In this document: in pieces, positions 135 through 26,189 of the stretch
How the letters are laid out: every line of letters begins with the position of its first letter
Numbering within the stretch: position 1 is the stretch's first letter
Assembly: GCA_963777755.1 (NCBI GenBank)
Contig: CAVZSC010000005.1
Span: forward strand, 30,933 to 62,932
DNA length: 32,000 nt
Direction: 5' to 3'
Origin: an uncultured Alphaproteobacteria bacterium
Lineage (GTDB): Bacteria; Pseudomonadota; Alphaproteobacteria; Rhizobiales; Xanthobacteraceae
The notes under the pieces: generated by a model
What the model was told of the DNA's origin: nothing
Seen by the model: only the letters and a program-made list of their open reading frames with translations
Database searches by the model: none
Position numbers and translations under genes: made by a program

Positions 135-149
135 GAACAAACCATGAAC
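135..149 (+). promoter_or_regulatory. SOS (LexA) box of the alphaproteobacterial GAAC-N7-GAAC type, upstream of imuA
   Basis: Read directly: GAAC(135-138) aaaccat GAAC(146-149). The GAAC-N7-GAAC direct repeat (GTTC-N7-GTTC on the other strand) is the established LexA operator of Rhizobiales/Rhodobacterales. imuA-imuB-dnaE2 cassettes are classic LexA regulon members. Only one copy seen; no binding data. Confidence 0.7.
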
Positions 150-170
150 ATAAACCCATCGGAGATCGCC

Positions 171-2484: not shown

Positions 2485-5400
2485 CCTGCGCCGAGCTCGC
2501 CGTCACCACCAATTTCTCCTTCCTGCGCGGCGCCTCGCATCCGGAGGAGCTGGTGACCCGCGCCAAGGCGCTCGGGCTTTCCGGGCTCGGCATCACCGAC
2601 CGCAACACGGTGGCGGGCGTCGTGCGCGCCCATGTGGCGGCCAAGGAAGCAGGCCTGAGGCTCGCGGTCGGCGCGCGCCTCGTCTTCGCCGACGGCACGC
2701 CCGATATCCTCGCCTATCCGCGGGATCGCGTCGCCTGGGGGCGGCTCACGCGTCTGCTCTCGCTCGGCAAGCTGCGCACCGACAAGGGCGAATGCATTCT
2801 TCGCATCGACGACCTGCTGGCGCACGTCGAGGGGCTCAACCTCGTGGTGATGCCGGGAGTTTTGGTCACCTCTTCCCGCTTGCCAGGGGAGAGGGTGACG
2901 TCCCTCCTTCGCACCATGCGTACCATGGCGCCGCGCGCGGTGTGGCTTGCGGCCAGCATGCTCTATCGCGGCGACGATGCGCGCCGCCTGGCCCGGCTCA
3001 AGGCGATTGCCGCGGAAGCGAGCGTGCCGCTGATCGCCGTCGGGGATGTGCTCTATCATGTGCCCGAGCGCCGGCCGCTGCAGGACGTCGTCACCTGCAT
3101 CCGCGAGCACGTGACGATCGATCAGGCCGGCCGGCGGCTCGAAGCCAATGCCGAGCGCCACCTGAAAGCGCCGGAGGAGATGGCTCGGCTGTTCCGCGCC
3201 GCGCCGAACGCGCTCGCCGAGACCGAGCGGCTGATCGAGCGTTGCGGCTTCTCGCTCGATGCGCTCAAGACAACCGAATATCCCGACGAGACGCGTCAGG
3301 GCTATGCGACGCCGCAGGACGCGCTCGTCGCCTTCGCGGAGGAGGGCGTCGCTAAGCGCTATCCGGGCGAAATTCCTGCCAAGGTCCGCCATGCCCTGAA
3401 CGAAGAGCTCAGACTGATCGGCGAGCTCGGCTACGCGCCGTTCTTCCTTACCGTGCATGAGATCGTCCGCTTCGCCCGTTCCCAAGGCATCCTGTGCCAG
3501 GGGCGCGGCTCGGCAGCGAACTCGGTCATCTGCTATTGCCTCGGCATCACCGAGGTCGATCCCGATCGCATCGACCTGTTGTTCGAGCGCTTCGTCTCGG
3601 CCGAGCGGCGCGAGCCGCCCGACATCGACGTCGATTTCGAGCATGAGCGGCGTGAAGAGGTGATCCAGCACATCTATCGGCAATATGGCCGCGAGCGCGC
3701 CGGCCTCGCCGCCACCGTGATCTGCTACCGCGGCCGCAGCGCCATCCGCGAGGTCGGCAAGGCGTTCGGCCTCTCCGGCGACACGATCGGCGCGCTCGCC
3801 GGCACCCTGTGGGGCTGGTCGATGCAGGGCGTCACGGAAAACGAGGCGCAGCGGGTCGGGCTCGACGCCACCGATCCGCGGCTCGCCAAGGCGATCGCGC
3901 TCGCCCGCGAGCTGAGCGGCTTCCCGCGCCATCTCTCCCAGCATGTCGGCGGCTTCGTCATCACCCGCTCGCGCCTCGACGAGGTGGTGCCGATCGAGAA
4001 CGCCGCCATGGAGGAGCGCACCGTCATCGAGTGGGACAAGGACGACCTCAACGAAGTGGGCCTGCTCAAGGTCGACGTGCTCGGGCTTGGCATGCTGTCC
4101 TGCCTGCGCCGGTCGTTCGATCTCTTGCGTGCGCACTATGGCGAGACGCGCACACTGTCCGTGCAGGACGAGGATCCGGCGGTCTACGACATGATCAAGC
4201 GCGCCGACACGATCGGCGTGTTCCAGATCGAGAGCCGCGCGCAGATGTCGATGCTGCCGCGGCTGCGCCCTGACAAATTCTACGATCTCGTCATCGAGGT
4301 CGCCATCGTGCGGCCGGGACCGATCCAGGGCGACATGGTGCATCCCTATCTGCGCCGCCGGCAGGGCCTCGAGCCGGTCAACTACGAATCCGCCGAACTG
4401 GAGGCGGTGCTGAAGAAGACGCTCGGCGTGCCGCTGTTCCAGGAGCAGGCGATGCGCATCGCCATCGTGGCGGCAGGCTTCACGCCCGCCGAGGCGGACA
4501 AGCTGCGGCGCGCCATGGCGACCTTCAAGCGGGTCGGCACCATCGCCTACTTTCGCGACAAGCTGGTCGACGGCATGGTGGCGAAAGGCTACCGGCGCGA
4601 GTTTGCCGAGCGCTGCTTCAGCCAGATCGAGGGCTTTGGCGAGTACGGCTTCCCCGAGAGCCATGCGGCGAGCTTCGCCAACCTGGTCTACGCCTCGGCC
4701 TGGATCAAATGCCGCTACCCGGATGTGTTCGCCGCCGCCCTCCTCAACAGCCAGCCCATGGGCTTCTACGCGCCGGCGCAGATCGTGCGCGACGCCCAGG
4801 ACCATGGGGTCGAGATCCGTCCGGTGGACGTGAATTTCTCCTGCTGGGACTGCACGCTGGAGGATTGCTCCATCCCTCCCCCGCAGGGGGAGGGTGGCCG
4901 TGCGAAGCACGGCCGGGTGGGGCTCCACCCTCGCCACGCCGAAATGCAGGGCGACATCCGCACCACCCGCGCGGTGCGGCTCGGCTTCCGCCAGATCAGC
5001 GGCGCATCCGAGGAGCCGTGGAAGGTGATCGAGCAGGTGCGTAGGGCTTCTGTCGTCGAGCAGGCAGGAAGTGAACCGCCTCGCGCGCGTCTTGCGTTCC
5101 CTCCCCCCTTGTGGGGGAGGGACAGGGAGGGGGGTGCGCCGCAAACTCTGAGTCCAGAAGTAGCCCCCCTCCCCAACCCTCCCCCACAAGGGGGGAGGGA
5201 GCAGGCAGAGCAAGTCGCACCGCCTGCGCCAAACCTCACGCCCCCCTCCCCGCGCAGAGAGACAAAATTCGACTCCATCCGCGATTTCTGGCTGCGCACG
5301 CGGCTGCCGCCGTCGGCGCTGGAGCGCCTCGCTGCCGCCGATGCGTTCCGCTCGCTCGGGCTCGACCGTCGCGCCGCCTTATGGGCGGTGCGCGCGCTAC

Positions 5401-6065
5401 GCCGCACCGGCGACAAGGACGACCTGCCGCTGTTCGCTGCGGTTGCGATGCCGGAGCTCGAGCCCGATGCGGCCCTGCCGCCGATGCCGCTCGGCGAGCA
5501 TGTGATCGCGGACTATCGCCACCTGCATCTCTCGCTGAAAGCGCATCCGGTCTCCTTCCTGCGCGGCGAGCTCGATCGCCGCGGCATCGTGCGCCACGAG
5601 TGCCTCGGGACGCTCTCGTCCGGCCGCGTCGTCACGATCGCCGGCCTGGTGCTGGTGCGCCAGCGGCCCGGCAGCGCCCAGGGGGTGATCTTCATGACCC
5701 TCGAGGACGAGACCGGCATCGCCAACACCATCGTGTGGCCAAAGGTGTTCGAGATCTTCCGTCCCGTAGTGCTCGGCGCGCGGCTCATCAGCGTCACCGG
5801 CAAGCTGCAGAACGAGCAGGGCGTGATCCACGTGGTGGCGCACCGGCTCGACGACCTCTCGCACCTGCTGCGCCGCCTCGCCGACACGACGTTCACCGAG
5901 GCGCTCGCCCATGTGGACGAAGTCCGCCGCCCGATCGACGACCGTACCCCGCGCCAGGGCGCCCGCAAGCTCGCCCGGCTGATCAAGGAGGAGCCGGGCC
6001 TGCTCGGCGAATTCGCCCCCGCCTCGCCCGCCGCCGTCATGCCCAAGGGGCGGAATTTTCATTGA
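2481..6065 (+). CDS. dnaE2: DnaE2, error-prone DNA polymerase III alpha-subunit paralogue (1194 aa)
   Basis: Starts [24 protein letters not shown] (PHP domain). Pol III alpha core motifs are present: [25 protein letters not shown]. There is a C-terminal OB-fold region and the protein ends GRNFH. ATG 2481 is coupled to the imuB stop. The ORF-track start 2334 is an upstream extension. Confidence 0.95.
2865..2899. repeat. Degenerate GC-rich palindromic (REP-like) unit inside dnaE2
   Basis: gtcacctcttccc gcttgcca ggggagagggtgac: arms pair over about 12 of 13 positions with one bulge. The sequence style (ccctc.../...gaggg) matches the units at 4874-4930 and 5097-5201. Encodes ...[13 protein letters not shown]... 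Confidence 0.4.
4874..4930. repeat. Triple-hairpin GC-rich palindromic unit, in frame within dnaE2
   Basis: Three consecutive perfect stems read directly. ccctccccc-gca-gggggaggg (4874-4894); ggccgtgc-gaa-gcacggcc (4896-4914); gggtgg-ggct-ccaccc (4915-4930). As delimited, 57 nt = 19 codons, encoding [19 protein letters not shown]. Confidence 0.75.
5097..5201. repeat. MITE-like composite: two 39-nt inverted arms, each itself a hairpin, around a 27-nt core, in frame within dnaE2
   Basis: Arm 5097-5135 (ttccctccccccttgtgggggagggacagggaggggggt) matches the reverse complement of 5163-5201 at 34 of 39 positions by hand alignment. Each arm holds a ccctccccc/gggggaggg hairpin (5099-5121 and 5177-5199). 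As delimited, 105 nt = 35 codons. Encodes [12 protein letters not shown]...[10 protein letters not shown]. Confidence 0.75.
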
Positions 6066-6156: not shown

Positions 6157-6882
6157 ATGAACACCCGCAAATATGCCGCCGAGGCCATTGGCACGTTCTG
6201 GCTGACGTTCGGAGGCTGCGGCAGCGCCGTGATTGCGTCGGGATTTCCACAGGTCGGCATCGGACTGCTCGGCGTCTCGCTGGCGTTCGGACTGACCGTC
6301 GTCACCATGGCCTACGCGATCGGCCACATCTCCGGATGCCATCTCAACCCGGCCGTTACCGTCGGGCTGGCAGCCGGCGGCCGCTTTCCGACCAACGAGA
6401 TCCTGCCCTACATCATCTCGCAGGTGATCGGGGCCATCGTCGGTGCCGCGGTGCTCTACCTGATTGCCCGTGGCAAAGCCGACTTCAGCCTCGCCAAGGG
6501 GTTCGCCGCCAACGGCTTCGGCTCCCACTCGCCGGGCGGATACAACATGGGCGCCGCTCTCCTCGCTGAGTTCGTGCTGACGATGATGTTCCTGTTCATC
6601 ATCATGGGCTCCACCCACGGCAAGGCGCCGGCCGGCTTCGCGCCGCTCGCCATCGGCCTCGGCCTCACCCTCATTCATCTCATCAGCATCCCGGTCACCA
6701 ACACCTCGGTGAACCCGGCGCGCAGCACCGGTCCCGCGCTGTTCGTCGGCGGCTGGGCGCTGCAGCAATTGTGGCTGTTCTGGGTGGCGCCGCTGATCGG
6801 CGGAGCAATCGGCGGCTTTGCCTACCGCTGGCTCAGCGAGGAACCCTCCGAACCGGTCACCGGAACGGCGAAGCCGGTGTGA
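6157..6882 (+). CDS. aqpZ: Aquaporin Z (MIP family water channel)
   Basis: 241 aa. N-terminus [21 protein letters not shown] and two NPA boxes ([13 protein letters not shown]). SD GAGGGAGA at 6143-6150. Confidence 0.95.
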
Positions 6883-6891
6883 GGCATGCGG

Positions 6892-6913
6892 GGGCGGAGC
6901 CGCTACTCCGCCC
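6892..6913. terminator. Candidate bidirectional hairpin between convergent aqpZ and the transglutaminase-like gene
   Basis: gggcggag (6892-6899), loop ccgcta, ctccgccc (6906-6913): 8-bp GC stem. It overlaps the stop of the minus-strand gene. No U-tract. Confidence 0.35.
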
Positions 6914-7775
6914 GCACTCGCACGTCGACATCCATGCCGATGTAGCTGGAAGGTTCGCCGTACCAGGTTCCGGACAGCGGCACGGCCTGGCTCGGATCGC
7001 GCGCCACCGCCACGCGGATCAGATCACGATTGCCGACGATACCGTTGGTCGGATCGAACTCCATCCAGCCGGCGCCGGGCAGATAGACCTGAACCCAGGC
7101 GTGGGTGGAGCTGCCGCCCACATGGCGCGGGCCGTCACGGCTGGCGACGTACAGGTAGCCGGACACGAAACGTGCCGCGAGATCGAGCGAGCGCACCGCC
7201 TCGATCATGAGGAGCGCGAGATCGCGGCACGAGCCGCGCTTGAGCCTGAGCGTCAGCGCCGGATCGCGTGTCCCCGGCTCATAGCGCCGCTCGTAGCTGA
7301 AGCCGTCCTGGATCGCACGGGTCAGCGTCATCAGGAGCGCGGCCGTGTCGGTCGCCCGCCCGTGCTGGAGGAACTTGCGCACCCAGCGGTAGACTTCCTG
7401 ATCCGGGTCGGAGTACTGGCGCTGGATCGCCGGAACGAGGTCGGGCATCTCCTCCGCTCGGTACGAGAACGGATAGGTCCTGGCGTAGTCCTCGATCCGG
7501 AAATCGGGAACGTTGGCAAAGGAATGGTCGAGACGAATCTGGCTCTCGAACCTCAGCTCGCCCGCTTCCCCGTCGAACTCCGCGATGGCGACGCAATTGC
7601 CGAACGGATCGTGCACCCAACGCACGCTGCTCGGCTCGGGCGTGACGGCGAGCGTCGCCGCGATGAGCTTCTGGTCGTAGCTGTCGCGCGGCCGGAACAT
7701 GATGCGATGTTGGCCGAACGAGACCGGCCGCCGGTACCGGTAGGTCGTGACGTGAGTTACTGTAAGGACGGTCAT
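6903..7775 (-). CDS. Transglutaminase-like cysteine protease family protein with Bact_transglu_N-type N-terminus
   Basis: Starts MTVLTVTHVTTYRYRRPV. Catalytic-triad contexts are RGSCRDLA (Cys), THAWVQVY (His) and EFDPTNG (Asp). ATG 7775 chosen; the ORF-track start 7916 adds 47 low-complexity residues and would run across the boxR promoter region. Confidence 0.85.
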   Translation of the reverse strand: MTVLTVTHVTTYRYRRPVSFGQHRIMFRPRDSYDQKLIAATLAVTPEPSSVRWVHDPFGNCVAIAEFDGEAGELRFESQIRLDHSFANVPDFRIEDYARTYPFSYRAEEMPDLVPAIQRQYSDPDQEVYRWVRKFLQHGRATDTAALLMTLTRAIQDGFSYERRYEPGTRDPALTLRLKRGSCRDLALLMIEAVRSLDLAARFVSGYLYVASRDGPRHVGGSSTHAWVQVYLPGAGWMEFDPTNGIVGNRDLIRVAVARDPSQAVPLSGTWYGEPSSYIGMDVDVRVRAE

Positions 7776-7907: not shown

Positions 7908-7927
7908 ATCATGCATTATAATGCAGG
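7908..7927. promoter_or_regulatory. Candidate BoxR/BzdR operator overlapping a consensus -10 box, upstream of boxR
   Basis: Perfect 14-bp palindrome TGCATTATAATGCA at 7912-7925, flanked by atc/gat. It contains TATAAT (7917-7922) 22 nt before the boxR ATG. 17 of 20 positions are shared with 8915-8934. BzdR-type operators are known to be built from TGCA repeats inside palindromes. Confidence 0.6.
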
Positions 7928-7943
7928 ATCGCCCGAGGTGAAA

Positions 7944-8870
7944 ATGGCCGACCGCGCCGAGCTATCCGCCCTCGCAGACCCCGACGACCTGGGCCCCTAT
8001 CTCGCCCGGCTGGGCGAGCGCGTGCGCATCCTGCGCACCCGGCGCGGCATGTCGCGAAAGGCGCTGGCGAAGCATTCGGACGTGTCCGAGCGCTACCTGG
8101 CGCAGCTCGAGGGGGGCACCGGCAACTGCTCGGTCGTGCTGCTGCGCCGCATCGCCCGGGCGCTGAGCGTGCCGCTGGCCGAGCTCGTCGATGATCGTCC
8201 CGATCGCTCGGTCGAGAGCCTCATGGTGATGCAGCTGATCGACCGCCTGGCGCCGGACGAAGTCGCCGAGGCAAGCGAGTTCCTGCGCCGGCGCTTCGGC
8301 GGGACGACGGCCGCGATGCGGCGAGGCCGCATCGCCCTGATCGGCCTGCGCGGCGGCGGCAAATCGACGCTCGGCCGGCTGCTGGCGGCCGAGCTCGAAG
8401 CGCCCTTCATCGAGCTCGACCGCGAGGTCGAGCGCGAGAGCGGCATGGCGCTCGGCGAATTGTTCGAGATGTTGGGCCAGCAGACGTTTCGCCGGATGGA
8501 GCGGGCGGCGCTGGAGAAAGTGCTGGCGCGCCATCCTGGTTTCGTGCTGGCGACCGGTGGCGGGCTGGTCACCGAGCCGGGCACCTTCGAGCTCCTGCTC
8601 GCCTCCTGCTTCACCGTCTGGGTGCGCGCGGCGCCCGCGGATCACATGAGCCGCGTCCTGCAGCAGGGGGATCTGCGCCCGATATCCGGCCATGCGCGGG
8701 CGATGGACGATCTCGTCGCGATTCTCAAAAGCCGCGAGCCGCTTTACGCCAAGGCCGACGTGACGCTCGAGACCACGGGGCACACCCCGCCCCAGGCCTT
8801 GCGCAAGCTGGTCCGGCTGGTGCGACCGACGGCAGCCGCCGAGGATCGTCAGCCGGTCGATGCGCGTTGA
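7944..8870 (+). CDS. boxR: BzdR/BoxR-type transcriptional regulator (XRE HTH fused to a shikimate-kinase-like domain)
   Basis: 308 aa. HTH region RGMSRKALAKHSDVSERYLAQLEGGTGNCSVVLLRRIARAL, plus a C-terminal P-loop GLRGGGKST with an SK-like fold. This fusion is the hallmark of the benzoyl-CoA-sensing repressors BzdR/BoxR. It lies directly upstream of boxC-boxB. The ORF-track ORF 6771..8870 is an upstream extension antisense to the transglutaminase-like gene. Confidence 0.8.
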   Translation: MADRAELSALADPDDLGPYLARLGERVRILRTRRGMSRKALAKHSDVSERYLAQLEGGTGNCSVVLLRRIARALSVPLAELVDDRPDRSVESLMVMQLIDRLAPDEVAEASEFLRRRFGGTTAAMRRGRIALIGLRGGGKSTLGRLLAAELEAPFIELDREVERESGMALGELFEMLGQQTFRRMERAALEKVLARHPGFVLATGGGLVTEPGTFELLLASCFTVWVRAAPADHMSRVLQQGDLRPISGHARAMDDLVAILKSREPLYAKADVTLETTGHTPPQALRKLVRLVRPTAAAEDRQPVDAR

Positions 8871-8914
8871 AGCAGGATGGCTGCGCCGCCAAATTGGTCC
8901 TGGCCATCCCAGGC

Positions 8915-8934
8915 ATGATGCATTATAGTTCAGG
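8915..8934. promoter_or_regulatory. Candidate BoxR operator / promoter of the boxC operon
   Basis: atgATGCATTATAgTtCAGG. The 10-mer ATGCATTATA (8918-8927) is identical to 7911-7920. A TATAGT -10-like hexamer lies at 8924-8929, 17 nt before the boxC ATG. Confidence 0.55.
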
Positions 8935-8946
8935 TCCGGAGCACAG

Positions 8947-10629
8947 ATGAGCCCAATCGATTTTCAGACCGATCCGAGCCGCTATCGTCACTGGCGCATC
9001 GAGATCGACGGCGAGGTCGCGTCCCTGATCATGGACGTGGACCCGTCGGGGAGCCTGTTCGAGGGGGTCGAGCTCAAGCTCAACTCCTACGACCTCGGCG
9101 TCGACATCGAGCTCAACGACGCGGTGCAGCGGCTGCGCTTCGAGCATCCGGACGTGCGCGCGGTCGTCATCAAGTCGGGCAAGGACAACGTGTTCTGCGC
9201 CGGCGCCAACATCCGCATGCTGGGCAAGGCGACGCACGGGCACAAGGTGAATTTCTGCAAGTTCACCAACGAGACCCGGCTGGCGATCGAGGATGCCTGT
9301 GCGAATTCCGGACAGGCCTACCTCGCCGCCGTGCGCGGATCCTGCGCCGGCGGGGGCTACGAGCTCGCGCTCGCTGCCGACCACATCATGCTGGTGGACG
9401 ACCGCCGCTCCACCGTGTCGCTGCCGGAGACGCCCTTGCTCGGCGTGCTGCCCGGCACCGGGGGCTTGAGCCGCGTCACCGACAAGCGGAAGGTGCGCCG
9501 CGACCGTGCCGACGTGTTCTGCGCGACCGAAGAGGGCCTGCGCGGCACCAAGGCGGTGGAGTGGCGCCTGGTCGACGAAGTGGTGCCCAATTCCAAATGG
9601 GCCGAGACGGTCGCGACACGCGCGCGCGAGCTCGCGGCGCGCTCCGACCGGCCGCGCGGCGCCAAAGGCATCAAGCTCACCGCGCTCGCACGCCGGCCGA
9701 ATGGCGACGGCGTCGTCTATTCCCACGTCGCCCTCGAGATCAACCGGCCGCGCGGCATCGCCACCCTGACCGCACGCGCGCCGGCGAACGCCGCGCCCGT
9801 TTCGGTCACCGCAGCGCATGAGCAGGGCGCCGCGTTTTGGCCGCTCGCACTCGCACGCGAGCTGGAGGATGCCATCCTCCACCTGCGCGCCAATGAGCCG
9901 GACGTCGGCCTCGTCGTGTTCCGCACGGAGGGCGAGGCCAAGGGCGTGCTCGATCACGACGCGCTGCTCGGCGAGAACGACTGGCTGATGCGCGAGGTGC
10001 GGCACTATCTCAAGCGCGTGCTCAAGCGCATCGACGTCACCTCGCGCAGCTTCATCGCGCTGGTCGAGCCCGGCACGTGCTTCGCCGGCACCCTTGCCGA
10101 GCTCGTGTTCGCCGCCGACCGCTCGCTCATGCTCATCGACACGCGCGAGGGCGACAACAAGCCGCCCGCCGCCATCACGCTGGGCGCGGCGAACTTTGGC
10201 TTCTATCCCATGGGCAACGGGCTTACCCGGCTGGAGACGCGCTTCCTCGACGATACCGACACGCTGGCGCGGCTGCGCGACAAGACCGGCACGCGGCTCG
10301 AGGCGGAGGCCGCCGACGAGCTCGGCCTCGTCACCGGCATCGTGGAATCCTACGACTGGGAGGACGAGCTGCGCGTCATGCTGGAGGAGCGCGCGAGCTT
10401 CTCGCCCGATGCGCTCACCGGCATGGAGGCGAACCTGCGCTTCGCCGGACCGGAAACCATGGAAACCAAGATCTTCGGCCGCCTGACCGCGTGGCAGAAC
10501 TGGATCTTCCAGCGCCCCAATGCGGTCGGCGAGCAGGGCGCGCTCAAGCTTTACGGCAGCGGCGTGCAGCCGACGTTCAACCGGGAAAGAATTCGACTCG
10601 TCCCGCACGTGGTGCGGCGCAAACCATAA
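8947..10629 (+). CDS. boxC: BoxC, 2,3-epoxybenzoyl-CoA dihydrolase (benzoyl-CoA-dihydrodiol lyase); large crotonase-family protein
   Basis: 560 aa with crotonase-type motifs (VVIKSGKDNVFCAGANIRML). The size is typical of BoxC, twice that of a normal enoyl-CoA hydratase. It is adjacent to boxB and a BoxR-type regulator. The assignment rests on size, family and context. Confidence 0.8.
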   Translation: MSPIDFQTDPSRYRHWRIEIDGEVASLIMDVDPSGSLFEGVELKLNSYDLGVDIELNDAVQRLRFEHPDVRAVVIKSGKDNVFCAGANIRMLGKATHGHKVNFCKFTNETRLAIEDACANSGQAYLAAVRGSCAGGGYELALAADHIMLVDDRRSTVSLPETPLLGVLPGTGGLSRVTDKRKVRRDRADVFCATEEGLRGTKAVEWRLVDEVVPNSKWAETVATRARELAARSDRPRGAKGIKLTALARRPNGDGVVYSHVALEINRPRGIATLTARAPANAAPVSVTAAHEQGAAFWPLALARELEDAILHLRANEPDVGLVVFRTEGEAKGVLDHDALLGENDWLMREVRHYLKRVLKRIDVTSRSFIALVEPGTCFAGTLAELVFAADRSLMLIDTREGDNKPPAAITLGAANFGFYPMGNGLTRLETRFLDDTDTLARLRDKTGTRLEAEAADELGLVTGIVESYDWEDELRVMLEERASFSPDALTGMEANLRFAGPETMETKIFGRLTAWQNWIFQRPNAVGEQGALKLYGSGVQPTFNRERIRLVPHVVRRKP

Positions 10630-10648
10630 GAACCAAGAGGCAGGTGCC

Positions 10649-12091
<1,443 letters not shown>

Positions 12092-12126
12092 TAGAAGGGG
12101 CGGCAGCTTTCCGGAGCAAGCGCCCC

Positions 12127-12669
12127 ATGTCGCAACGCAGCCGCTCGGACAATTCCGCCGACGAGGTGATCCTGGTCGATGCCGACGACCGGCTGGTCGG
12201 GACCATGGGGAAGCTCGAGGCGCACCGGCGGGGGCTACGCCACCGCGCCCTCTCGGTGATCGTGCGCGACCGGCACAACCGGCTGATGCTGCAGCGGCGC
12301 GCACTCGCCAAGTATCACTCGGGCGGGCTGTGGACCAACACCTGCTGCAGCCATCCGCGGCCAGGTGAAGATACGGCCGATGCCGCCGCGCGCCGGCTCG
12401 CCGAGGAGATGGGATTCGGCTGCCCGCTCACGTTGCTGTTCTCCACCCACTATCGCGCCCAGGTGTCGAACGACCTGATCGAGGACGAGCTGGTGCACGT
12501 GTTCGGCGGCCGCTTCGACGGCGCGCCCGATCCCGACCCGGCCGAGGTCGCCGAGTGGTGCTGGAAGGCCGCCGACGAGCTTGCACACGACATCGACCAG
12601 CACCCCGAGCTCTACACGGTCTGGTTCCGCAAATACCGGCAGCAATTCTGGCAGGCGATGGTGGGGTAG
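12127..12669 (+). CDS. idi: Isopentenyl-diphosphate delta-isomerase, type 1 (Nudix fold)
   Basis: LRHRALSVIVRDRHNRLMLQRRALAKYHSGGLWTNTCCSHP aligns with E. coli Idi LHLAFSSWLFN...[25 protein letters not shown] (catalytic Cys). The downstream IEDELVHVF corresponds to the catalytic Glu region. The start is uncertain: ATG 12127, or GTG 12088 overlapping the boxB stop. Confidence 0.85.
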   Translation: MSQRSRSDNSADEVILVDADDRLVGTMGKLEAHRRGLRHRALSVIVRDRHNRLMLQRRALAKYHSGGLWTNTCCSHPRPGEDTADAAARRLAEEMGFGCPLTLLFSTHYRAQVSNDLIEDELVHVFGGRFDGAPDPDPAEVAEWCWKAADELAHDIDQHPELYTVWFRKYRQQFWQAMVG

Positions 12670-12740
12670 TCGGCGGGTTGGCCGGCGCGCAGCGACACGA
12701 TAGTCTGCAACCGAACAGCCTTATGGGAGGTCGAGACGCC

Positions 12741-14321
12741 ATGCAGGAAGCCGTGCGCAAGGAAACAATCCGGCCCGCCGCGCAGGACACGCAGGATCTG
12801 CGCGGCACGCTCGCCTGGCTCAAGGCCGGGGGCGACCTGATCGAGACCGACAAGCCGGTCGATCCCGACCTCGAGGTCACCGGCCTGCAGAAGCATCTCG
12901 ACGGCGGCTGCCCGGTACTGTTCAACAACGTCAAGGGCAAGCCCAACCATCGCGTCGTCACCAACCTGTTCGGCGACATCAACGTCATCAACAGGATGTT
13001 CGGCTGGAAGGACGACGTGGAGCGCACCCGCAAGCTCGCCTACGCGATCTCGCACCCGCTGAAGCCCGTCGAGATCCCGCAAGGGCAGGCGCCGTGCCAG
13101 GAGGTGGTGATCGAGAAGCCGGACGACGTGAACCGCTATATGGTGCCGATCCGGCACACCGCCGTCGAGCCGGAGCTCACCGTCGGGTCCGGCATCCGCT
13201 GCGTCACCGGCCGCCATTTCGACGGCGGGTCCGACCTCGGCTACAACCGCATGAATTTCCGCTGGGGCAATGTCGGCACGTTCCAGATCTCACCCGGCTC
13301 GCACATGTGGCAGGTGGTCAACAAGTACTACAAGGCCGACGAGCCGGTACCGATCACCATGTGCTTCGGCGTGCCGCCCGCCTGCACGCTGCTCGCCGGC
13401 GCCGCCTTCGGCTACGCCATCATGCCGCAGGGCTGCGACGAGATCGGCATCGCCGGCGCCGTGCAGGGTGCGCCGATCCGCCTGGTCAAGGCGCGCACGG
13501 TCGATGCCATGGCGCTGGCCGATGCCGAAGTGGTGCTCGAAGGCTACGTCAATCCGCGCGACCGCCGCTTCGAGACCAAGGAGGCGGAGGACGCCGGCAT
13601 CCAGGGCCGCTTCCATTTCCATCCCGAGTGGGCCGGCTATATGGGCAAGGCCTACAAGGCGCCGACCTTCCACGTCACCGCCGTGACCATGCGGCGCCCG
13701 GAGACGAAGCCGATCATCTTCGCGCTCGGCGTTCACACGCTCGACGACCACAACATCGACACCACGGTGCGCGAGGCGACCATCTACGAGCTGTGCAACC
13801 GGCTGCAGCCGGGCATCATCCAGGACGTCGTCGTGCCCTATTGCATGACCGATTGGGGCGGCTGCATCATCCAGGTGAAGAAGCGCCACCAGATCGACGA
13901 AGGCTGGCAGCGCAATTTCCTCTCCGCCATCCTGTCGTGCTCGCAAGGGATGCGGCTCGCCATCGCGGTGAGCGAGGACACCGACCCCTATTCGATGGAC
14001 GACGTGATGTGGTGCCTCACCACCCGCGTCAACCCGCGCACCGATATCCTCAACCCGATCCCCGGCGGGCGCGGACAGACGTTCATGCCGGCCGAGCGGA
14101 TGACCGCGGGCGACAAGCAATGGACCGCCTCGAACACCCAGTTCGAAGGCGGCATGGGCATCGATGCAACCGTGCCGTTCGGCTACGAGAGCGATTTCAT
14201 GCGCCCGGTCTATCCGGTCGACCGGGTGAAGCCGGAGGATTTCTTCTCCAAGAAGGACATCGAGAACGCCCGCTCGCGCATGGTCGGCTGGGTGCATTCG
14301 CTCTCGCGCACCGGGCGGTGA
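12741..14321 (+). CDS. UbiD-family (prFMN-dependent) decarboxylase, substrate unknown
   Basis: 526 aa from ATG 12741, with SD GGGAGG at 12725-12730. UbiD-like N-terminus DLRGTLAWLKAGGDLIETDKPVDPDLEVTGL, a DLGYNRM segment and a C-terminal region like UbiD/AroY-type enzymes. The acidic EGPFG.HTGYY-type region is divergent (GRFHFHPEWAGYMG), which suggests it is not the canonical ubiquinone UbiD. Confidence 0.85.
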   Translation: MQEAVRKETIRPAAQDTQDLRGTLAWLKAGGDLIETDKPVDPDLEVTGLQKHLDGGCPVLFNNVKGKPNHRVVTNLFGDINVINRMFGWKDDVERTRKLAYAISHPLKPVEIPQGQAPCQEVVIEKPDDVNRYMVPIRHTAVEPELTVGSGIRCVTGRHFDGGSDLGYNRMNFRWGNVGTFQISPGSHMWQVVNKYYKADEPVPITMCFGVPPACTLLAGAAFGYAIMPQGCDEIGIAGAVQGAPIRLVKARTVDAMALADAEVVLEGYVNPRDRRFETKEAEDAGIQGRFHFHPEWAGYMGKAYKAPTFHVTAVTMRRPETKPIIFALGVHTLDDHNIDTTVREATIYELCNRLQPGIIQDVVVPYCMTDWGGCIIQVKKRHQIDEGWQRNFLSAILSCSQGMRLAIAVSEDTDPYSMDDVMWCLTTRVNPRTDILNPIPGGRGQTFMPAERMTAGDKQWTASNTQFEGGMGIDATVPFGYESDFMRPVYPVDRVKPEDFFSKKDIENARSRMVGWVHSLSRTGR

Positions 14322-14347
14322 ACTGATCGCCGTTCCAACCATTCGTC

Positions 14348-14453
14348 ATGGCCGGCCTTGTGCCGGCCATCTCGATAATGAGGGCACGATCGTGCCATTC
14401 GAATTGGGATCGCCGGGACAACCCTCGCCGCTTAAGGCGGCTCGCCCGGCGAT
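14348..14453. repeat. Three stacked REP-like palindromes in the convergent gap; probable bidirectional terminator
   Basis: atggccggc-cttgt-gccggccat (14348-14370). ggcacgatcgtgcc, a perfect 14-bp palindrome (14383-14396). atcgccggg...cccggcgat (14409-14453) enclosing gccgc-ttaag-gcggc. The first unit is the ..ggccggc..gccggccatgacga type that I recognise as a recurrent intergenic element of Bradyrhizobium/Rhodopseudomonas genomes. Confidence 0.6.
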
Positions 14454-14461
14454 GACGAGCC

Positions 14462-16003
14462 TCACGCACCCCTCTCCCTGCTCCACAGCCCGACCAGCGC
14501 CTTGCGGTCGAGCTTGCCGCGCTCGGTCTTGGGCAGTGACGCGCTCAGCACGATCGCCTTCGGCGCCTTGAATGCCGGCAGCACGCTGTTGCAGTAGCGC
14601 AAGAGCTCGGCAACGTCGACGCGCGAACCTGACCGCGCCACCACGTAGCTCACCACCTCTTCGCCGTAGATCGAGTCCGGCACGCCGACGGTCGCCACTT
14701 CGATCAGCTCCGGCCGCTGCATCAGCAGGCTGTCGATCTCGACCGGCGAGATGTTGACGCCGCCGCGGATGATGATCTCCTTCTCGCGCCCGGTCAGATG
14801 CAGGTATCCGTCCGCATCGAGGAACCCGAGGTCGCCGGTGCGGATGCGCCTGCGCGCGCTCACCCGGATGGTGCCGTCGTCGGCGAGGTAGCGATAGGCA
14901 TGATCGCCGAGGCCGCCGACCTCGACCGCGCCGATCTCGCCCGCGCCGAGCCGCCGTCCCTCCGCATCGACGATCGCGAGATCATGGTAGGGCAGCGGCC
15001 TGCCCACCGTCCCGAGCCGCCGCGCCTCCCCCGGGATCGCCGCGATCCAGCCGGTCTCGCTGCTGCCGTAGCCCTGCGCGACCGGAATGCCGAAGTGCTC
15101 CTCGAACCGGCGCCACTCCTCGGGCAGGAGCGGCGCCGAGCTCGACGTGATGAAGCGCAGCGTCGGCACCTTGTCGCCCAGCGCATCGACCTCGCTGTTG
15201 AGCAGCATGTTGATGGTGGTCGGATTGCCGGCCGCGATGGTCGCGCCGAACATGCGAATATGGTCGAAGAACCGCCTGGCCGAGAACCGGCGCGCGACCA
15301 CCACCGAGGCGCCGGCGCAGATCGGCGCGAGCGCGCTCAACAGCTGCGCGGAGGCCCAGTTGAACGAGCGGAAGTCGTAGATCCGGTCATCCTCGCCGAT
15401 GCCGAACCCTTCCGCCGTCGGCGCGATGTTCGACAGGTGCTCGCGGAACGTCAGCACCACGCCCTTCGGGCGAGCGCTGGTGCCCGAGGTGAACAGGATG
15501 ACCGCGTCGTGCCCCTCGTCAGAGCCATGAGCCAGGACGTCGCTGGGTGTACAGCGCGCCACCTCGCTGAAAAAACCATCGTCTCCCTCCCACCTGCCCA
15601 GCGGGAGATGCGGCGCGCCGGACGCCGCCACCAGGTCGTCGAGATCGAGCCCCGTCTCGGACAGCACCAGGCGCGGCCGCAAGTCCGGCAGAATGCGATC
15701 GAGATGGTTGCGGTTCATCTCCACGTGGATGGTGCAAATGGTCGCCCCATAGGCCATCACGCCGAGATAGCAGGCGAGGTGCTCGATGCCGTTGTTGGCG
15801 AGCAGCGCCACCCGGTCGTTGGCGCCGAGCCCGCGCGCGTGCAGGACCGCGGCGATCTGCCCGGTGACGCGGTGCAACTGACGGTACGTGATGGCGCGGC
15901 CGTCGTCGGCCGAGACGATGCAGGCCTTGTCGGGATGCCGCGCGGCCGCCCGCGCAATCCAATGACGCAGCAGGAGCGGCCCGGCTTGTTCGTTTACGCT
16001 CAT
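14462..16003 (-). CDS. AMP-forming acyl/aryl-CoA ligase (ANL superfamily), substrate unknown
   Basis: Core motifs LFTSGTSARPKGV, GYGSSETG, TGDLG, GREKEIIIRGGVNISP and LPKTERGKLDRKAL. ATG 16003 preferred; GTG 16027 is possible. Confidence 0.88.
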   Translation of the reverse strand: MSVNEQAGPLLLRHWIARAAARHPDKACIVSADDGRAITYRQLHRVTGQIAAVLHARGLGANDRVALLANNGIEHLACYLGVMAYGATICTIHVEMNRNHLDRILPDLRPRLVLSETGLDLDDLVAASGAPHLPLGRWEGDDGFFSEVARCTPSDVLAHGSDEGHDAVILFTSGTSARPKGVVLTFREHLSNIAPTAEGFGIGEDDRIYDFRSFNWASAQLLSALAPICAGASVVVARRFSARRFFDHIRMFGATIAAGNPTTINMLLNSEVDALGDKVPTLRFITSSSAPLLPEEWRRFEEHFGIPVAQGYGSSETGWIAAIPGEARRLGTVGRPLPYHDLAIVDAEGRRLGAGEIGAVEVGGLGDHAYRYLADDGTIRVSARRRIRTGDLGFLDADGYLHLTGREKEIIIRGGVNISPVEIDSLLMQRPELIEVATVGVPDSIYGEEVVSYVVARSGSRVDVAELLRYCNSVLPAFKAPKAIVLSASLPKTERGKLDRKALVGLWSRERGA

Positions 16004-16173
16004 TGCACCGTCAACCCGTCTGCCCACTATCGGCGGCGCCGCGGACAGTCTAATTTAGCGCCCGCTCCGGCGCCAGGAGCCGAGCAGAATCGAGCGGAGC
16101 ACAACGGTGGCGCGGTCGGCTGGGGAGGTCTAGAGCTCATGGTGCAGCACGTGCGAGCGGGTGCAGGGTGGAC

Positions 16174-16734
16174 ATGACGCTGCCGCTCATCGTCGGAATC
16201 AGCGGAGCATCGGGGGCGATCTACGGAATCCGGCTCCTCGAAGTCCTGAAAAGCATCCGCGTCCCTGCCCACCTGATCGTCTCCAAGTCGGCGATCCAGA
16301 CGCTCAAGGAGGAAGCCGGCAGCTCGATCGAGGCAGTGCGCAAGCTCGCCGCCGACACCTATTCCAACAGCGATATCGGCGCCGCCGTGTCGAGCGGATC
16401 GTTCAAGACGCACGGCATGCTCATCGCCCCGTGCTCGATCCGCACGCTGTCCGACATTGCCTATGGCGGAACCGACAACCTCTTGAGCCGCGCCGCCGAC
16501 GTCCAGCTCAAGGAGCGCCGACGCGTGGTGCTGATGGTGCGGGAGACTCCGCTGCATGCCGGCCACCTGCGCAGCATGATGGCGGCGACCGAGAACGGCG
16601 CCATCGTCATGCCGCCCGTACCGGCGTTTTATCACAACCCGAAGACGATCGACGACATCGTCAACCAGACGGTCGGCCGGGCACTCGACCTGTTCGACAT
16701 CGACGCCAAGATCGTCAAGCGCTGGCGCTCGTGA
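16174..16734 (+). CDS. ubiX: UbiX, flavin prenyltransferase (prFMN synthase)
   Basis: LIVGISGASGAIYG, LIAPCSIRTLSDIAYG, VLMVRETPLH and PPVPAFYH are canonical UbiX/Pad1 motifs. Start is ATG 16174 or GTG 16168. Confidence 0.92.
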   Translation: MTLPLIVGISGASGAIYGIRLLEVLKSIRVPAHLIVSKSAIQTLKEEAGSSIEAVRKLAADTYSNSDIGAAVSSGSFKTHGMLIAPCSIRTLSDIAYGGTDNLLSRAADVQLKERRRVVLMVRETPLHAGHLRSMMAATENGAIVMPPVPAFYHNPKTIDDIVNQTVGRALDLFDIDAKIVKRWRS

Positions 16735-16736
16735 CG

Positions 16737-18167
16737 ATGCGGATCGGCAAGGCGCATTTCATCGGCATCGCCGGTGCCGGCATGAGCGCGACGGCGAAGC
16801 TGCTCAAGGACCAGGGCGCCACCATCACGGGTTCCGACGAAGGCATCTATCCACCGGTGTCGGATTTCCTGCGCGAGCACGGCATCGCATGCCGCACGCC
16901 CTACGCAGCCGAAAACATTCCCGCCGACGCCGACCTCGTCGTCATCGGCAAGAACGCCAGGCTGGTCGCCGAGACCAACGCCGAAGTCGCCTCCGCCTAT
17001 GCGAGCGGCAAGACCATCATGTCGTTTCCCGAGGTGCTCGGCGCCTTGTCGGAAGGCAAGGAGACGGTCGTCGTCGCCGGCGCCTACGGCAAATCCACCA
17101 GCGCCGCCCTGCTGGCCCACTGCCTCGAAGGCGCGCCGGCCGGCGCAGCCCGCGCGCGCGACCCGTCCTGGTTCATCGGCGCCATCCCGCTGACGCCGTC
17201 GGCCAACGCGCGACTGGGAGCCGGCCCGCTGTTCGTTCTCGAGGGCGACGAGTATCCGTCATCGAACACCGACCCCCGTTCGAAGTTCCTGCACTATCAT
17301 CCGCGGCATCTCCTGATCACGCCGCTCGCCCACGATCACCTCAACGTCTTTCCCACGCCAGACGACTACGTCGCGCCGTTCCGCCAGCTGCTGACGCTGC
17401 CGCCGGCGGACGGCACGATCCTCGCATGCGCGGAAGGAAAGCTGAGCCCGGCGCTGCTCGCCCACGCCTCGCGGCCCGTCGTCACCTACGGGGTTCACGC
17501 TGGCGAGTTCTGCGCCGCCGACATCGCCTGGGGTGAGACGACGCGCTTCACCCTTATGCGGCACGGCTCGCGCATCGCCCGGATGGAGACGAGCCAGCTC
17601 GGCGAGCACAACATCCAGAACATCGTCGGGGTCGCGGCCTTCCTCCTCTCCCTCGGCCTCCTCACGCCCGATGAGATCGCGGCCGCGAGCGCGAGCTTTC
17701 GCGGCATCCGGCGGCGGCTCGACCGCAAGTCGGAGAAAACCACCATTCCGATCTTCGAGGGGTTCGGCTCGTCCTACGACAAGGCGCGCAGCGCGATCGC
17801 GGCGATGAAGCGGCATTTTCCCGATCGGCGCCTGATCGCGGTGTTCGAGCCGCACACGTTCAGCTGGCGCAATCGCGACGCGCTCGCCTGGTACGACGAC
17901 GTGTTCGAGGGCGCCGCCAAGGTGTTCATTTACGAGCCTGCCGACCAGGGGGCCGCGACACACCAGCAGATCTCGCACCAGGAAATCTTGGATCGCGTGC
18001 TCAAATCAGGCTGCGACGCCGAAGCCATTTCCGATGCCGACCAGGCGCTTACGACGATCCATGACATATTGCTGCCGAACGATGCCGTCCTGCTGCTGAC
18101 ATCTGGGAATCTCGGGGGGCTGATCGACCGGATTCCGGTCGCTGCCGAGCAGAAGTTTCCGCGTTGA
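16737..18167 (+). CDS. mpl: Mpl, UDP-N-acetylmuramate:L-Ala-gamma-D-Glu-meso-DAP ligase (Mur ligase family, murein peptide recycling)
   Basis: HFIGIAGAGMSATAKLL..GSDEGIYPPVSDFL, P-loop AGAYGKSTS and FVLEGDEYPSSNTDPRSKFLHYHPRHLLITPLAHDH align with E. coli Mpl ([50 protein letters not shown]). Start is ATG 16737 or GTG 16731, overlapping the ubiX stop. ORF-track 16161..18167 is an upstream extension across ubiX. Confidence 0.85.
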   Translation: MRIGKAHFIGIAGAGMSATAKLLKDQGATITGSDEGIYPPVSDFLREHGIACRTPYAAENIPADADLVVIGKNARLVAETNAEVASAYASGKTIMSFPEVLGALSEGKETVVVAGAYGKSTSAALLAHCLEGAPAGAARARDPSWFIGAIPLTPSANARLGAGPLFVLEGDEYPSSNTDPRSKFLHYHPRHLLITPLAHDHLNVFPTPDDYVAPFRQLLTLPPADGTILACAEGKLSPALLAHASRPVVTYGVHAGEFCAADIAWGETTRFTLMRHGSRIARMETSQLGEHNIQNIVGVAAFLLSLGLLTPDEIAAASASFRGIRRRLDRKSEKTTIPIFEGFGSSYDKARSAIAAMKRHFPDRRLIAVFEPHTFSWRNRDALAWYDDVFEGAAKVFIYEPADQGAATHQQISHQEILDRVLKSGCDAEAISDADQALTTIHDILLPNDAVLLLTSGNLGGLIDRIPVAAEQKFPR

Positions 18168-18324: not shown

Positions 18325-19434
18325 ATGCGATCGCAATCGCTCATAAGACACTGCGCCTGCACCACAGTCACCTTGATCACGATATCGGCGGCGAGCCTCG
18401 CGGCAAGAGCCGACAGTCTCCCGCCCTACATGCAACCAATCGCCGGACGCACGACTTCCACCGCGGCCGACACGGCCACCAAGAACGTCCTGGCGCTGAA
18501 TACCGGCATGTTCGAGCTGTATGGCGACGCGGCCAGAATCTTCCAGAAGAACATTCTCAGCCGGCATCCCGTCATCCTCGGCCTGTTCTCCGGGGCCGGC
18601 GGCCGATTCATACTCTATCGGCCTGACACGCCTCCACTGGAGGCGCCATCGGTCCCGATCGTCTACCAATTGCTGAAATCCGTCGGCCACAGCACGATGG
18701 CTCTGGCTCAGGTGGTAGGTCCGTACCTGGACAATCCTGCCGATCGGTCCTGGCGCGGACCTATGGCTGCCTATCGCAGCCGGATGAATTCCGCCCTGGA
18801 GGAGCTGGCTGCCACTCCGATGGACCCGGCCTGGCGCGAGAACAACCAGATCATTCTGCAGAACAACATCACGTTCATGGATGACTGCCTGGCGGAAGGG
18901 GCTGTCTCCTTCACCGCCCTGGAGACGTTCTCCAAGAAGCAGGCCCCCTATCTCGCGCGGAACGTCGCATGGGCGGCTGAGACTCAGGTCGCCCACTGGA
19001 TGGCTGTGCTGGCGGACTGGAAGAAGTCGCTCGGCGGCGACTGGGACAAGACCTATGCGGCCAGCAATACGATCTATGTGGCGCGGCAAAACAACGTGTT
19101 GTTCAGCGTCCTTGCACAGTTTTTCGGGCCCGACGCGATCAACAGCCGCCTGATGCTGATCGAGACGATCTCGTTCACGACGACGCCGGCGGACATGTTG
19201 AACTCGCTGACGCGCATCATCGCCGACCGCTCCGTGGGCGCGCTGTTCTTCGGCAACTATCACCTGATGGACTATGAATTGATGGGCGGCGACGCGCGCA
19301 CCGCAATCGCCGCGGAAACTGCAAAGCGCGGAATGACCGCGTTCTTGCCTCCCCTCGTACCCTTCGGATCGAAGCAATGGCCGACCCTGGTCACGCCCGG
19401 ACCGGGACCTGCCTCCATCGCCGACCTCAAATAG
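18325..19434 (+). CDS. Exported protein of unknown function
   Basis: ATG 18325 with SD AGGGAGGA (18313-18320). Sec-type signal peptide MRSQSLIRHCACTTVTLITISAASLAARA/DS. Amino-acid composition is varied, and third-position GC bias supports this strand over the Arg-rich antisense ORF 18049..19377. I recognise no family. Confidence 0.65.
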   Translation: MRSQSLIRHCACTTVTLITISAASLAARADSLPPYMQPIAGRTTSTAADTATKNVLALNTGMFELYGDAARIFQKNILSRHPVILGLFSGAGGRFILYRPDTPPLEAPSVPIVYQLLKSVGHSTMALAQVVGPYLDNPADRSWRGPMAAYRSRMNSALEELAATPMDPAWRENNQIILQNNITFMDDCLAEGAVSFTALETFSKKQAPYLARNVAWAAETQVAHWMAVLADWKKSLGGDWDKTYAASNTIYVARQNNVLFSVLAQFFGPDAINSRLMLIETISFTTTPADMLNSLTRIIADRSVGALFFGNYHLMDYELMGGDARTAIAAETAKRGMTAFLPPLVPFGSKQWPTLVTPGPGPASIADLK

Positions 19435-19443
19435 CGGCTACGG

Positions 19444-19462
19444 CGCCCGAGTCGATCGGGCG
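19444..19462 (+). terminator. Weak hairpin after the exported-protein gene
   Basis: cgcccga-gtcga-tcgggcg, a 7-bp stem 10 nt after the stop. No U-tract. It may be only a partial terminator or attenuator ahead of the Mo-hydroxylase genes. Confidence 0.25.
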
Positions 19463-19508
19463 TCGACCAAGACCACGATGACCGACTCAACGGAACCAGA
19501 ACAACATC

Positions 19509-24075: not shown

Positions 24076-24095
24076 AAACGGACGCGGCGGCGAGG

Positions 24096-24479: not shown

Positions 24480-24501
24480 GGTCCGTGCTCCACGCGTGTG
24501 A

Positions 24502-26135: not shown

Positions 26136-26189
26136 GGCTTCCTCCGCTCTCGATTCAGGTCGTTCTAGGGTACAAGAATGCCCGAAAAT

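Follow-up and report, generated by a model that had tools for sequence, protein, structure and literature searches.

A putative CoA-dependent funnel for o-phthalate joined to the aerobic benzoyl-CoA (box) genes of a soil Xanthobacteraceae-type alphaproteobacterium

The window analyzed here is a 32,000-nucleotide stretch of contig CAVZSC010000005.1 (positions 30,933 to 62,932) from an uncultured alphaproteobacterium, in which two genes of the aerobic benzoyl-coenzyme A (benzoyl-CoA; box) pathway, boxC and boxB, are followed on the same strand by idi and by a UbiD-family decarboxylase gene, here called pcd. Our analysis suggested that the locus encodes a CoA-dependent o-phthalate funnel attached to the box pathway in a soil Xanthobacteraceae-type alphaproteobacterium, and we put the probability of this reading at roughly 0.6. 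In the proposed route, a ligase encoded next to pcd would convert phthalate, ATP, and CoA to the labile phthaloyl-CoA, from which the phthaloyl-CoA decarboxylase (PCD), using prenylated flavin mononucleotide (prFMN), is predicted on strong homology to strip the free ortho-carboxyl group, giving benzoyl-CoA and CO2. UbiX would make the prFMN, and Idi, an isopentenyl diphosphate (IPP) isomerase, would enlarge the pool of dimethylallyl diphosphate (DMAPP), the source of the dimethylallyl donor; the demand for cofactor would be high because PCD has to be abundant to capture its unstable substrate. BoxB is predicted, again on strong homology, to epoxidize benzoyl-CoA and BoxC to cleave the ring; the genes for the electron-donating BoxA, for BoxD, and for the subsequent steps presumably lie outside the window. 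BoxR would repress its own promoter and that of boxC through TGCA-N6-TGCA palindromes and would be released by binding benzoyl-CoA. As the operator sites and the gene spacing suggest, boxC-boxB-idi-pcd would be one product-induced transcription unit that ends at the hairpins after pcd, and the ligase gene and ubiX would be under a control of their own, apart from BoxR.

An earlier note made from the same letters (the original prediction) had taken the 526-residue UbiD-like protein as a candidate aryl-CoA decarboxylase that supplies the O2-dependent benzoyl-CoA pathway, and homology supported this. When Pcd was compared with all solved structures, the best match was phthaloyl-CoA decarboxylase (8PMK/8OZ5/8P02) with 914 bits over the full length, versus 166 bits for AroY, 116-118 bits for HmfF (6H6V/6H6X), 78 bits for Fdc1, and 61 bits for Escherichia coli UbiD. 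The identity was 72.9% with the Thauera enzyme (372/510 positions, ungapped) and 74% without gaps with the PCD of Aromatoleum aromaticum strain EbN1. The three-domain UbiD architecture was present, each domain scoring over its cut-off (UbiD_N, 61.7 bits; UbiD, 114.1 bits; UbiD_C, 76.5 bits). A library of representatives at 50% identity gave 56, 41, and at most 37% identity for the full-length relatives that came next, and in a neighbor-joining tree the window Pcd, 80 orthologues from metagenome-assembled genomes (MAGs), and both characterized betaproteobacterial enzymes formed one clade apart from the relatives with at most 56% identity. The canonical UbiD model NF008175 (4-hydroxy-3-polyprenylbenzoate decarboxylase) gave 63.5 bits on Pcd versus a cut-off of 788. 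Grouping with this canonical enzyme, which by the original prediction would have refuted it, was thus not observed. The genomic partners were also those expected of a PCD, since a CoA-activating enzyme and UbiX are both encoded nearby. These results supported the identification of the protein, as far as its sequence can tell, as a phthaloyl-CoA decarboxylase orthologue. The recombinant PCD of Azoarcus PA01 needed UbiX, FMN, and dimethylallyl monophosphate (DMAP), and its activity was unaffected by O2 (bioRxiv 10.1101/2022.07.29.502009). A scan for Pcd relatives with one genome per species gave at least 535 genomes, and the family members diverge by 10-27%. The best 80 of these 535 relatives are 83-91% identical to the window protein, and nearly all of them come from soil MAGs that carry the label Xanthobacteraceae, Hyphomicrobiales, or Alphaproteobacteria.

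Since the G+C content of the window is about 67% and spurious open reading frames (ORFs) abound, gene identities were set by profile searches together with the gene calls of public assemblies (Table 1). The positions proposed earlier for boxC, boxB, idi, the UbiD-like gene, the ligase gene, and ubiX were all recovered, and the gene map likewise confirmed that the ligase gene is convergent with pcd and that ubiX diverges from the ligase gene. boxR, boxC, boxB, idi, and pcd are co-directional with successive gaps of 76, 19, 35, and 71 nt; the ligase gene ends 140 nt from pcd, and ubiX lies 1.85 kb downstream of pcd. Both starts that had been considered for idi are present, a GTG at 12088 that overlaps the boxB stop and the start at 12127, 35 nt downstream of boxB, which the public gene calls take. 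boxR has an alternative in-frame ATG at 7911, near the 7908 of the original prediction, and alternative GTG starts exist for the ligase gene (16027) and for ubiX (16168). A minus-strand ORF at 7962-8783 was rejected as boxR, which is on the plus strand, as it had no family match. The gene order recurred in two independent ENA assemblies at 99.5-99.97% identity, and locus L002, from a MAG of a different species, carries the 3' end of boxB, idi, and pcd all on one strand; the order is therefore no assembly artefact. Locus L081 aligned with the window (2741-24321) with 17 gap openings, and in its public gene calls boxC is fragmented and boxB is fused to idi. Locus L082 aligned gap-free at 99.97% identity but diverged right after ubiX (window 16747); the cause is either a break in the assembly or structural variation between strains.

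Table 1. Coordinates of the genes and regulatory features at the box-pcd locus (positions in the window).
Feature	Position	Strand	Remarks
Perfect palindrome TGCATTATAATGCA, candidate BoxR operator	7912-7925		19 nt upstream of the boxR ATG
boxR	7944-8870	+	XRE-type helix-turn-helix (HTH) plus shikimate-kinase-like domain; 308-aa gene in public assemblies
Promoter-like TGGCCA-17-TATAGT	8901-8929	+	Consensus scan; just before boxC
Variant operator-like site TGCATTATAGTTCA	8919-8932	+	Overlaps the -10 TATAGT; 15 nt upstream of the boxC ATG
boxC, predicted 2,3-epoxybenzoyl-CoA dihydrolase	8947-10629	+	TIGR03222 equivalog, 911.4 bits vs cut-off 712.3, full length
boxB, predicted benzoyl-CoA 2,3-epoxidase oxygenase subunit	10649-12091	+	TIGR03225, 871.6 bits vs cut-off 499.1
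Small hairpin in the boxB-idi gap	12097-12126	+	-16.3 kcal/mol, z -2.24; sequesters GGAG before the idi ATG
idi, predicted type-1 isopentenyl-diphosphate isomerase	12127-12669	+	NF002995, 157 bits vs cut-off 127
pcd, phthaloyl-CoA decarboxylase orthologue, UbiD family, predicted prFMN-dependent	12741-14321	+	526 aa; homology
Strongly structured region between convergent pcd and ligase genes	14342-14459		-66.3 kcal/mol, z -4.43; 0/200 shuffles as stable
ANL (AMP-forming) acyl-CoA ligase, candidate phthalate-CoA ligase	14462-16003	-	AMP-binding and AMP-binding_C domains
ubiX, predicted flavin prenyltransferase (prFMN synthase)	16174-16734	+	NF004685, 258 bits vs cut-off 188

The boxR product has the domain architecture of BoxR/BzdR (PF01202 SKI, 120.7 bits, with HTH_31 and HTH_3) and showed 74% identity with the boxR products of loci L051 and L056. 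BoxR and BzdR bind TGCA repeats within longer palindromes and respond to benzoyl-CoA (PMC6449761). In the window, the operator-like motif TGCA-N6-TGCA occurred at two sites only, versus 0.11 expected in 32 kb. The perfect palindrome sits in the divergent region common to boxR and a transglutaminase-like gene, and the variant site overlaps the -10 element of the promoter-like site of boxC. The independent loci L051 and L056 have similar TGCA-N6-TGCA palindromes ahead of both boxR and boxC. Because the palindrome overlaps the -10 box and is conserved in independent genomes, the control of the boxC promoter by BoxR was supported. The original prediction had placed the decarboxylase, the ligase, and the box genes all in one regulon. 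The BoxR-type sites before boxR and boxC agreed with this, but none was found by the ligase gene or ubiX; since no operator-like site lies between these two genes, a single regulon is supported for boxC-boxB-idi-pcd only, and only if these genes are co-transcribed.

As to co-transcription, a terminator scan from boxR to the pcd stop found none, and a consensus scan found no promoter-like site within the boxC-pcd string, the single one preceding boxC. Folding in the idi-pcd and boxR-boxC gaps was no better than that of shuffled sequences. The sole strong RNA structure was that between the convergent pcd and ligase genes, which lacks a classical T-tract and is likely a bidirectional transcript end. 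The earlier statement that the first strong hairpins come only after the UbiD-like gene was thus upheld, apart from the small hairpin in the boxB-idi gap, which it had left unmentioned.

Several observations weigh against the proposed funnel. Besides the missing operator by the ligase gene and ubiX, some of them concern the transcription unit, and these favor an explanation in which idi and pcd, as a mobile unit of two or three genes with a promoter of their own, came to lie behind boxB through functional clustering or chance insertion and are transcribed and regulated independently of BoxR. The boxB-idi gap of the window holds the small hairpin, which has no U-tract. In L002, the boxB-idi spacer (L002:228-489) is 262 nt long and extremely structured (-144 kcal/mol, z -6.4), so that co-transcription of boxB and idi in that locus is doubtful; this spacer has a 22-bp perfect hairpin, looks like a repetitive extragenic palindrome (REP) or a miniature inverted-repeat transposable element (MITE), and is absent from the window. 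Units of idi-pcd(-ligase) also stand alone, with no box genes close by, in L061, L078, L060, and L069, the first two of which make an internal promoter within the 3' end of boxB possible, and in the closest relatives, L003 and L004, pcd and the ligase gene stand in unrelated contexts. The 80 metagenomic loci with the closest BoxB (72-86% identity) all lacked idi and pcd.

Against an independent module speaks the 35-nt boxB-idi junction of the window, which is the tightest version seen and has no promoter-like match, as does the lack of strong structure ahead of the pcd stop. The distribution of the linkage points in the same direction. Box genes were present in 3/80 Pcd loci, namely in L002, whose Pcd is closest to that of the window, and in L051 and L056, where boxR, an alpha/beta-hydrolase gene, boxC, and boxB lie about 5 kb from pcd and are divergent from it. 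With 0/80 BoxB loci and 3/80 Pcd loci in differing arrangements, the box-pcd linkage is rare and arose at least twice, once in the lineage of the window and L002 and once in that of L051 and L056. Conservation of the gene neighborhood, which the original prediction had named as a check, was found for one part only: pairing of the ligase gene with pcd is common, whereas linkage of pcd to box genes is not. The last point against a BoxR-independent module is locus L003. When 79 related loci were searched for a BoxR-type operator near the ligase gene, near ubiX, or upstream of pcd, L003 alone had one: TGCATTATAGTGCG at L003:9939-9952, 62 nt upstream of the ATG (10001) of a stand-alone pcd, in a context, GATGATTGCATTATAGT, that resembles the boxC promoter of the window. 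This pcd is 89% identical to that of the window and has no box genes within 10 kb, and its site was the sole match with at most two mismatches outside box loci in 1.48 Mb. The site suggests that pcd of L003 is under BoxR-type control in trans, without fusion to box genes. Weighing these findings, we consider a BoxR-independent module unlikely, although it deserves to be taken seriously.

The proposed funnel also lacks several partner genes in the window. boxA was not found there by tblastn with BoxA from L102, nor was any Fer4 or FNR-type ORF, and tblastn did not find boxA in the pcd loci either. Profile searches of the 32-kb window found no boxD, bclA, or obvious phthalate transporter, and the next 9.4 kb to the right, along which we walked, hold an exopolysaccharide cluster and no box genes. 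An adjacent BoxA homologue was present in just 14 of the 80 closest BoxB loci (L086-L165), so that the missing adjacent boxA is typical of the clade. The window BoxB gave 681 bits with the structure of Azoarcus evansii BoxB (3PER), and its diiron motifs EEGRH and TEEAHH are conserved. In the BoxB loci L086-L165, the gene after boxB is mostly on the opposite strand, and in L088 a gene for a thioredoxin-reductase-like flavoprotein adjoins boxR. In L087 (4311-9243), and also in L089 and L097, all among the closest BoxB relatives, boxC-boxB is followed by a convergent true benzoate-CoA ligase gene and by the beta/alpha genes of 4-hydroxybenzoyl-CoA reductase (TIGR03195, 411 bits vs cut-off 405; TIGR03194, 1157 vs 995). 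By these scores, another benzoyl-CoA-forming enzyme of anaerobic type is encoded beside aerobic box genes in these three loci.

The substrate of Pcd is open to a second explanation. In the neighbor-joining tree, the window Pcd lies in a different subclade from the characterized PCDs, to which it is 73% identical, so that phthaloyl-CoA is its predicted substrate only. Pcd might instead act on a different, probably natural ortho-dicarboxy-aryl-CoA, derived from a substituted phthalate or a heteroaromatic dicarboxylate, with the ligase tuned to that acid. Its position outside the subclade of the betaproteobacterial enzymes fits with this, as does the ligase, which has no characterized close relative. 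The spread of the family over at least 535 species-level genomes fits as well, since we judged its divergence too great for an origin with industrial phthalates only. Against another substrate, the position of pcd behind boxCB points to benzoyl-CoA as the product, which is to our knowledge the only substrate of BoxB. The gapless identity of 73-74% is with two enzymes from phthalate clusters, and carboxylesterase genes with weak PETase-like matches lie near the pair of ligase gene and pcd in relatives. The characterized PCD is, furthermore, strictly specific for o-phthalyl-CoA (bioRxiv 10.1101/2022.07.29.502009). We regard a substrate other than phthaloyl-CoA as improbable.

The ligase was examined in the same way. 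The original prediction had allowed that it may just serve the box cluster as its benzoate-CoA ligase (BclA function), in which case phthalate would be activated elsewhere; the window has no bclA, whereas box clusters normally carry one (PMC6449761; 80 BoxB loci). The ligase reached no equivalog cut-off among the NCBIfam profiles, and its core ANL motifs are complete (TSGTSARPKG, YGSSE, TGD, GREKE, and PKTERGK). Its nearest solved relatives are the dicarboxylate activators oxalyl-CoA synthetase (213 bits) and malonyl-CoA synthetase (183 bits), versus 121 bits for benzoate-CoA ligases. The benzoate-CoA ligase profile TIGR02262, on which the genuine bclA genes of box clusters score 735-748 bits, was absent from its best 25 NCBIfam matches, and the identity with the bclA genes in the 80 box loci was 24-32% (about 27%). 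The window enzyme thus falls outside the benzoate-CoA ligase family, and it pairs with pcd instead, also in loci without box genes; a BclA function is very improbable.

The pairing is extensive. Orthologues of the ligase (59-77% identity) were encoded within 10 kb of pcd in 50/80 loci, or 43 of the 58 with full flanks, and in a reciprocal look-up a full-length UbiD gene adjoined 4/4 ligase homologues on long contigs. From this synteny we infer that the ligase is the conserved partner of Pcd and the phthalate-activating enzyme. A point on the other side is that a large protein collection gave only generic acyl-CoA synthetase labels for it and no characterized close relative. In L051, which lacks the ligase gene, a family III CoA-transferase gene comes after pcd. 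This mirrors the two known modes of phthalate activation, by a ligase in sulfate reducers and by a CoA-transferase in denitrifiers (PMC13040137). In L166-L169 and many of L001-L080, pcd and the ligase gene are part of larger islands. Encoded there are another UbiD paralogue (24-30% identical) together with a UbiX of its own, a PaaK-type ligase and an FlK-like thioesterase, a MarR regulator, an NMT1-type binding protein, a Rieske/VanA-type oxygenase, and the carboxylesterases with weak PETase-like matches; these islands may be modules that serve phthalate esters or other isomers of phthalate. The last alternative, a furan-2,5-dicarboxylate system of the HmfF/HmfG/HmfD type, as the original prediction had also considered, or a housekeeping UbiD/UbiX pair of ubiquinone synthesis, is consistent with UbiD- and UbiX-family membership only; the HmfF, E. 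coli UbiD, and NF008175 scores of Pcd given above refute it at the sequence level, and its probability is practically negligible.

To assess the supply of prFMN in the proposed funnel, we aligned Idi with E. coli IDI (1I9A). The residues H25, H32, C67, H69, E87, Y104, E114, E116, and W161, which we take to be the catalytic and metal-binding residues of the E. coli enzyme, are all conserved, and the idi product is on this alignment a genuine type-1 IPP isomerase and no generic Nudix hydrolase. An Idi homologue was encoded within 10 kb of pcd in 23/80 loci, directly upstream of pcd and co-directional in L002, L061, and L078; NUDIX genes are also present in L168 and L169, and an annotated idi (56% identical) lies beside IclR-ubiX-pcd on plasmid 2 of strain EbN1. 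A search of the literature available to us for a link of idi to UbiX/prFMN supply or to phthalate clusters found none. UbiX requires a dimethylallyl phosphate donor, which for the Azoarcus PA01 enzyme was shown to be DMAP (bioRxiv 10.1101/2022.07.29.502009), and labile phthaloyl-CoA can be trapped only if PCD is abundant (PMC13040137). For these two reasons, the most economical explanation is probably that Idi feeds prFMN synthesis through the supply of DMAPP.

For UbiX, the best matches among solved structures were PAD1 and a decarboxylase-associated UbiX (160-176 bits), with 118 bits for Pseudomonas aeruginosa UbiX, and the identity with the pcd-linked UbiX of EbN1 was 52%. On the other side, its identity with the UbiX proteins linked to pcd in relatives is just 48-56%, and a Mur-ligase-family gene (murC/mpl-like, 229 and 179 bits, both below cut-off) begins 2 nt after ubiX (16734-16737). 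Hence ubiX may be a resident gene rather than one dedicated to pcd, and the arrangement suggests a ubiX-mur operon without relation to aromatic catabolism.

Elsewhere in the window, positions 144-6065 hold a mutagenesis cassette of an imuA-like ORF (no family match), imuB (Y-family polymerase-like), and dnaE2 (error-prone polymerase III alpha subunit), followed downstream by aqpZ (6157-6882) and the transglutaminase-like gene (6903-7775, minus strand). A catabolic-looking cluster at 18325-27236 encodes a 369-aa protein without family, a xanthine-dehydrogenase-family flavin adenine dinucleotide (FAD) subunit, a fused 2Fe-2S/Mo subunit (917 aa, below all equivalog cut-offs), a double ABM-domain protein, a Rieske ferredoxin, an Amidohydro_2 enzyme, and a TctC-family binding protein. 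The xanthine-dehydrogenase-family genes (19509-23092) were rejected as a 4-hydroxybenzoyl-CoA reductase, which would have been a second module forming benzoyl-CoA, with 468 bits on TIGR03194 versus a cut-off of 995 and no TIGR03195 match for the FAD subunit.

Few pollutants derived from plastics are as widespread as phthalates, and phthalate itself is a breakdown product of plasticizers. Recent reviews, up to 2026, place the phthaloyl-CoA route under anaerobic degradation only (PMC13040137, PMC11568242). The locus would be a natural genetic fusion of this route with the O2-dependent benzoyl-CoA pathway in a soil alphaproteobacterium, and what is new in it is a candidate phthalate-CoA ligase family and idi as a recurrent accessory gene. 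Only tentatively, with the odds somewhat against it, we suggest further that it represents a primary aerobic or microaerobic CoA-dependent phthalate route in abundant soil Xanthobacteraceae, and not a stop-gap use of a pathway of anaerobes, with pcd and boxCB co-transcribed and induced through benzoyl-CoA and BoxR, a dedicated and hitherto uncharacterized ANL ligase of the dicarboxylate type, and an IPP isomerase borne on the operon. On this suggestion, the pcd-ligase(-idi) module would be old and widespread, as the number of genomes and the divergence of the family indicate, which would conflict with the view that anaerobes acquired phthaloyl-CoA decarboxylation recently in response to a xenobiotic. 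If the funnel is real, more organisms and conditions would be credited with phthalate removal in soil. The genes for the ligase, Pcd, UbiX, and Idi would provide a compact set for engineering the conversion of phthalate to benzoyl-CoA in aerobes, and the locus would offer a clean test case for product-induced BoxR control and an example of a catabolic operon with its own supply of a cofactor precursor.

That PCD and the box pathway can be combined physiologically has already been described in denitrifiers, a point of which the original prediction was unaware. Ebenau-Jehle et al. in 2020 (Appl Environ Microbiol, cited in PMC9516798) reportedly found an aerobic "hybrid" phthalate pathway in which PCD feeds the box pathway in the denitrifying Betaproteobacteria Thauera chlorobenzoica and Aromatoleum evansii; its modules are said to be separately encoded, with activation by a succinyl-CoA:phthalate CoA-transferase. 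The pathway proposed here would share with it the sequence from phthalate through phthaloyl-CoA and, by PCD, benzoyl-CoA to the O2-dependent BoxAB/BoxC steps. Unlike in the denitrifiers, pcd of the window lies in the box gene string behind boxB, apparently under a BoxR promoter, an ATP-dependent ligase seems to carry out the activation, idi recurs, and the host belongs to the Alphaproteobacteria and is probably an aerobe. The phthalate cluster on plasmid 2 of EbN1 (NC_006824) resembles the window in that pcd (74%), ubiX (52%), and idi (56%) occur together. Features of its own are an IclR regulator, an ABC transporter, duplicated ubiX-ubiD pairs, insertion sequence (IS) flanks, and its place on a conjugative plasmid; unlike the window, the region shown lacks box genes and an ANL ligase gene. 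The segment we compared (locus L083, NC_006824 69913-89439) is IS-flanked and, besides two ubiX-ubiD pairs, holds a third UbiD paralogue.

The canonical betaproteobacterial box regulon consists of boxR, boxCBA, and a divergent boxD-bclA (PMC6449761). The window is like it in that boxR adjoins boxC-boxB with TGCA-palindrome operators; it differs in that idi-pcd takes the place of boxA after boxB and in that the 32 kb contain no boxA, boxD, or bclA. A phthalate-CoA ligase and a PCD are described for Desulfosarcina cetonica, which reduces sulfate (Geiger et al. 2019, summarized in PMC13040137). By that description, an ATP-dependent ligase followed by a UbiD-type PCD is common to both systems, whereas D. 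cetonica is an obligate anaerobe that reduces benzoyl-CoA instead of epoxidizing it. Syntrophorhabdus aromaticivorans has a phenylacetate-CoA-ligase-like isophthalate-CoA ligase and an isophthaloyl-CoA decarboxylase (PMC9516798). It is likewise comparable to the window in the succession of a ligase and a UbiD-type decarboxylase that yields benzoyl-CoA; unlike there, the ligase of the window is nearest to oxalyl- and malonyl-CoA synthetases, and its decarboxylase groups with the ortho-phthaloyl-CoA enzymes.

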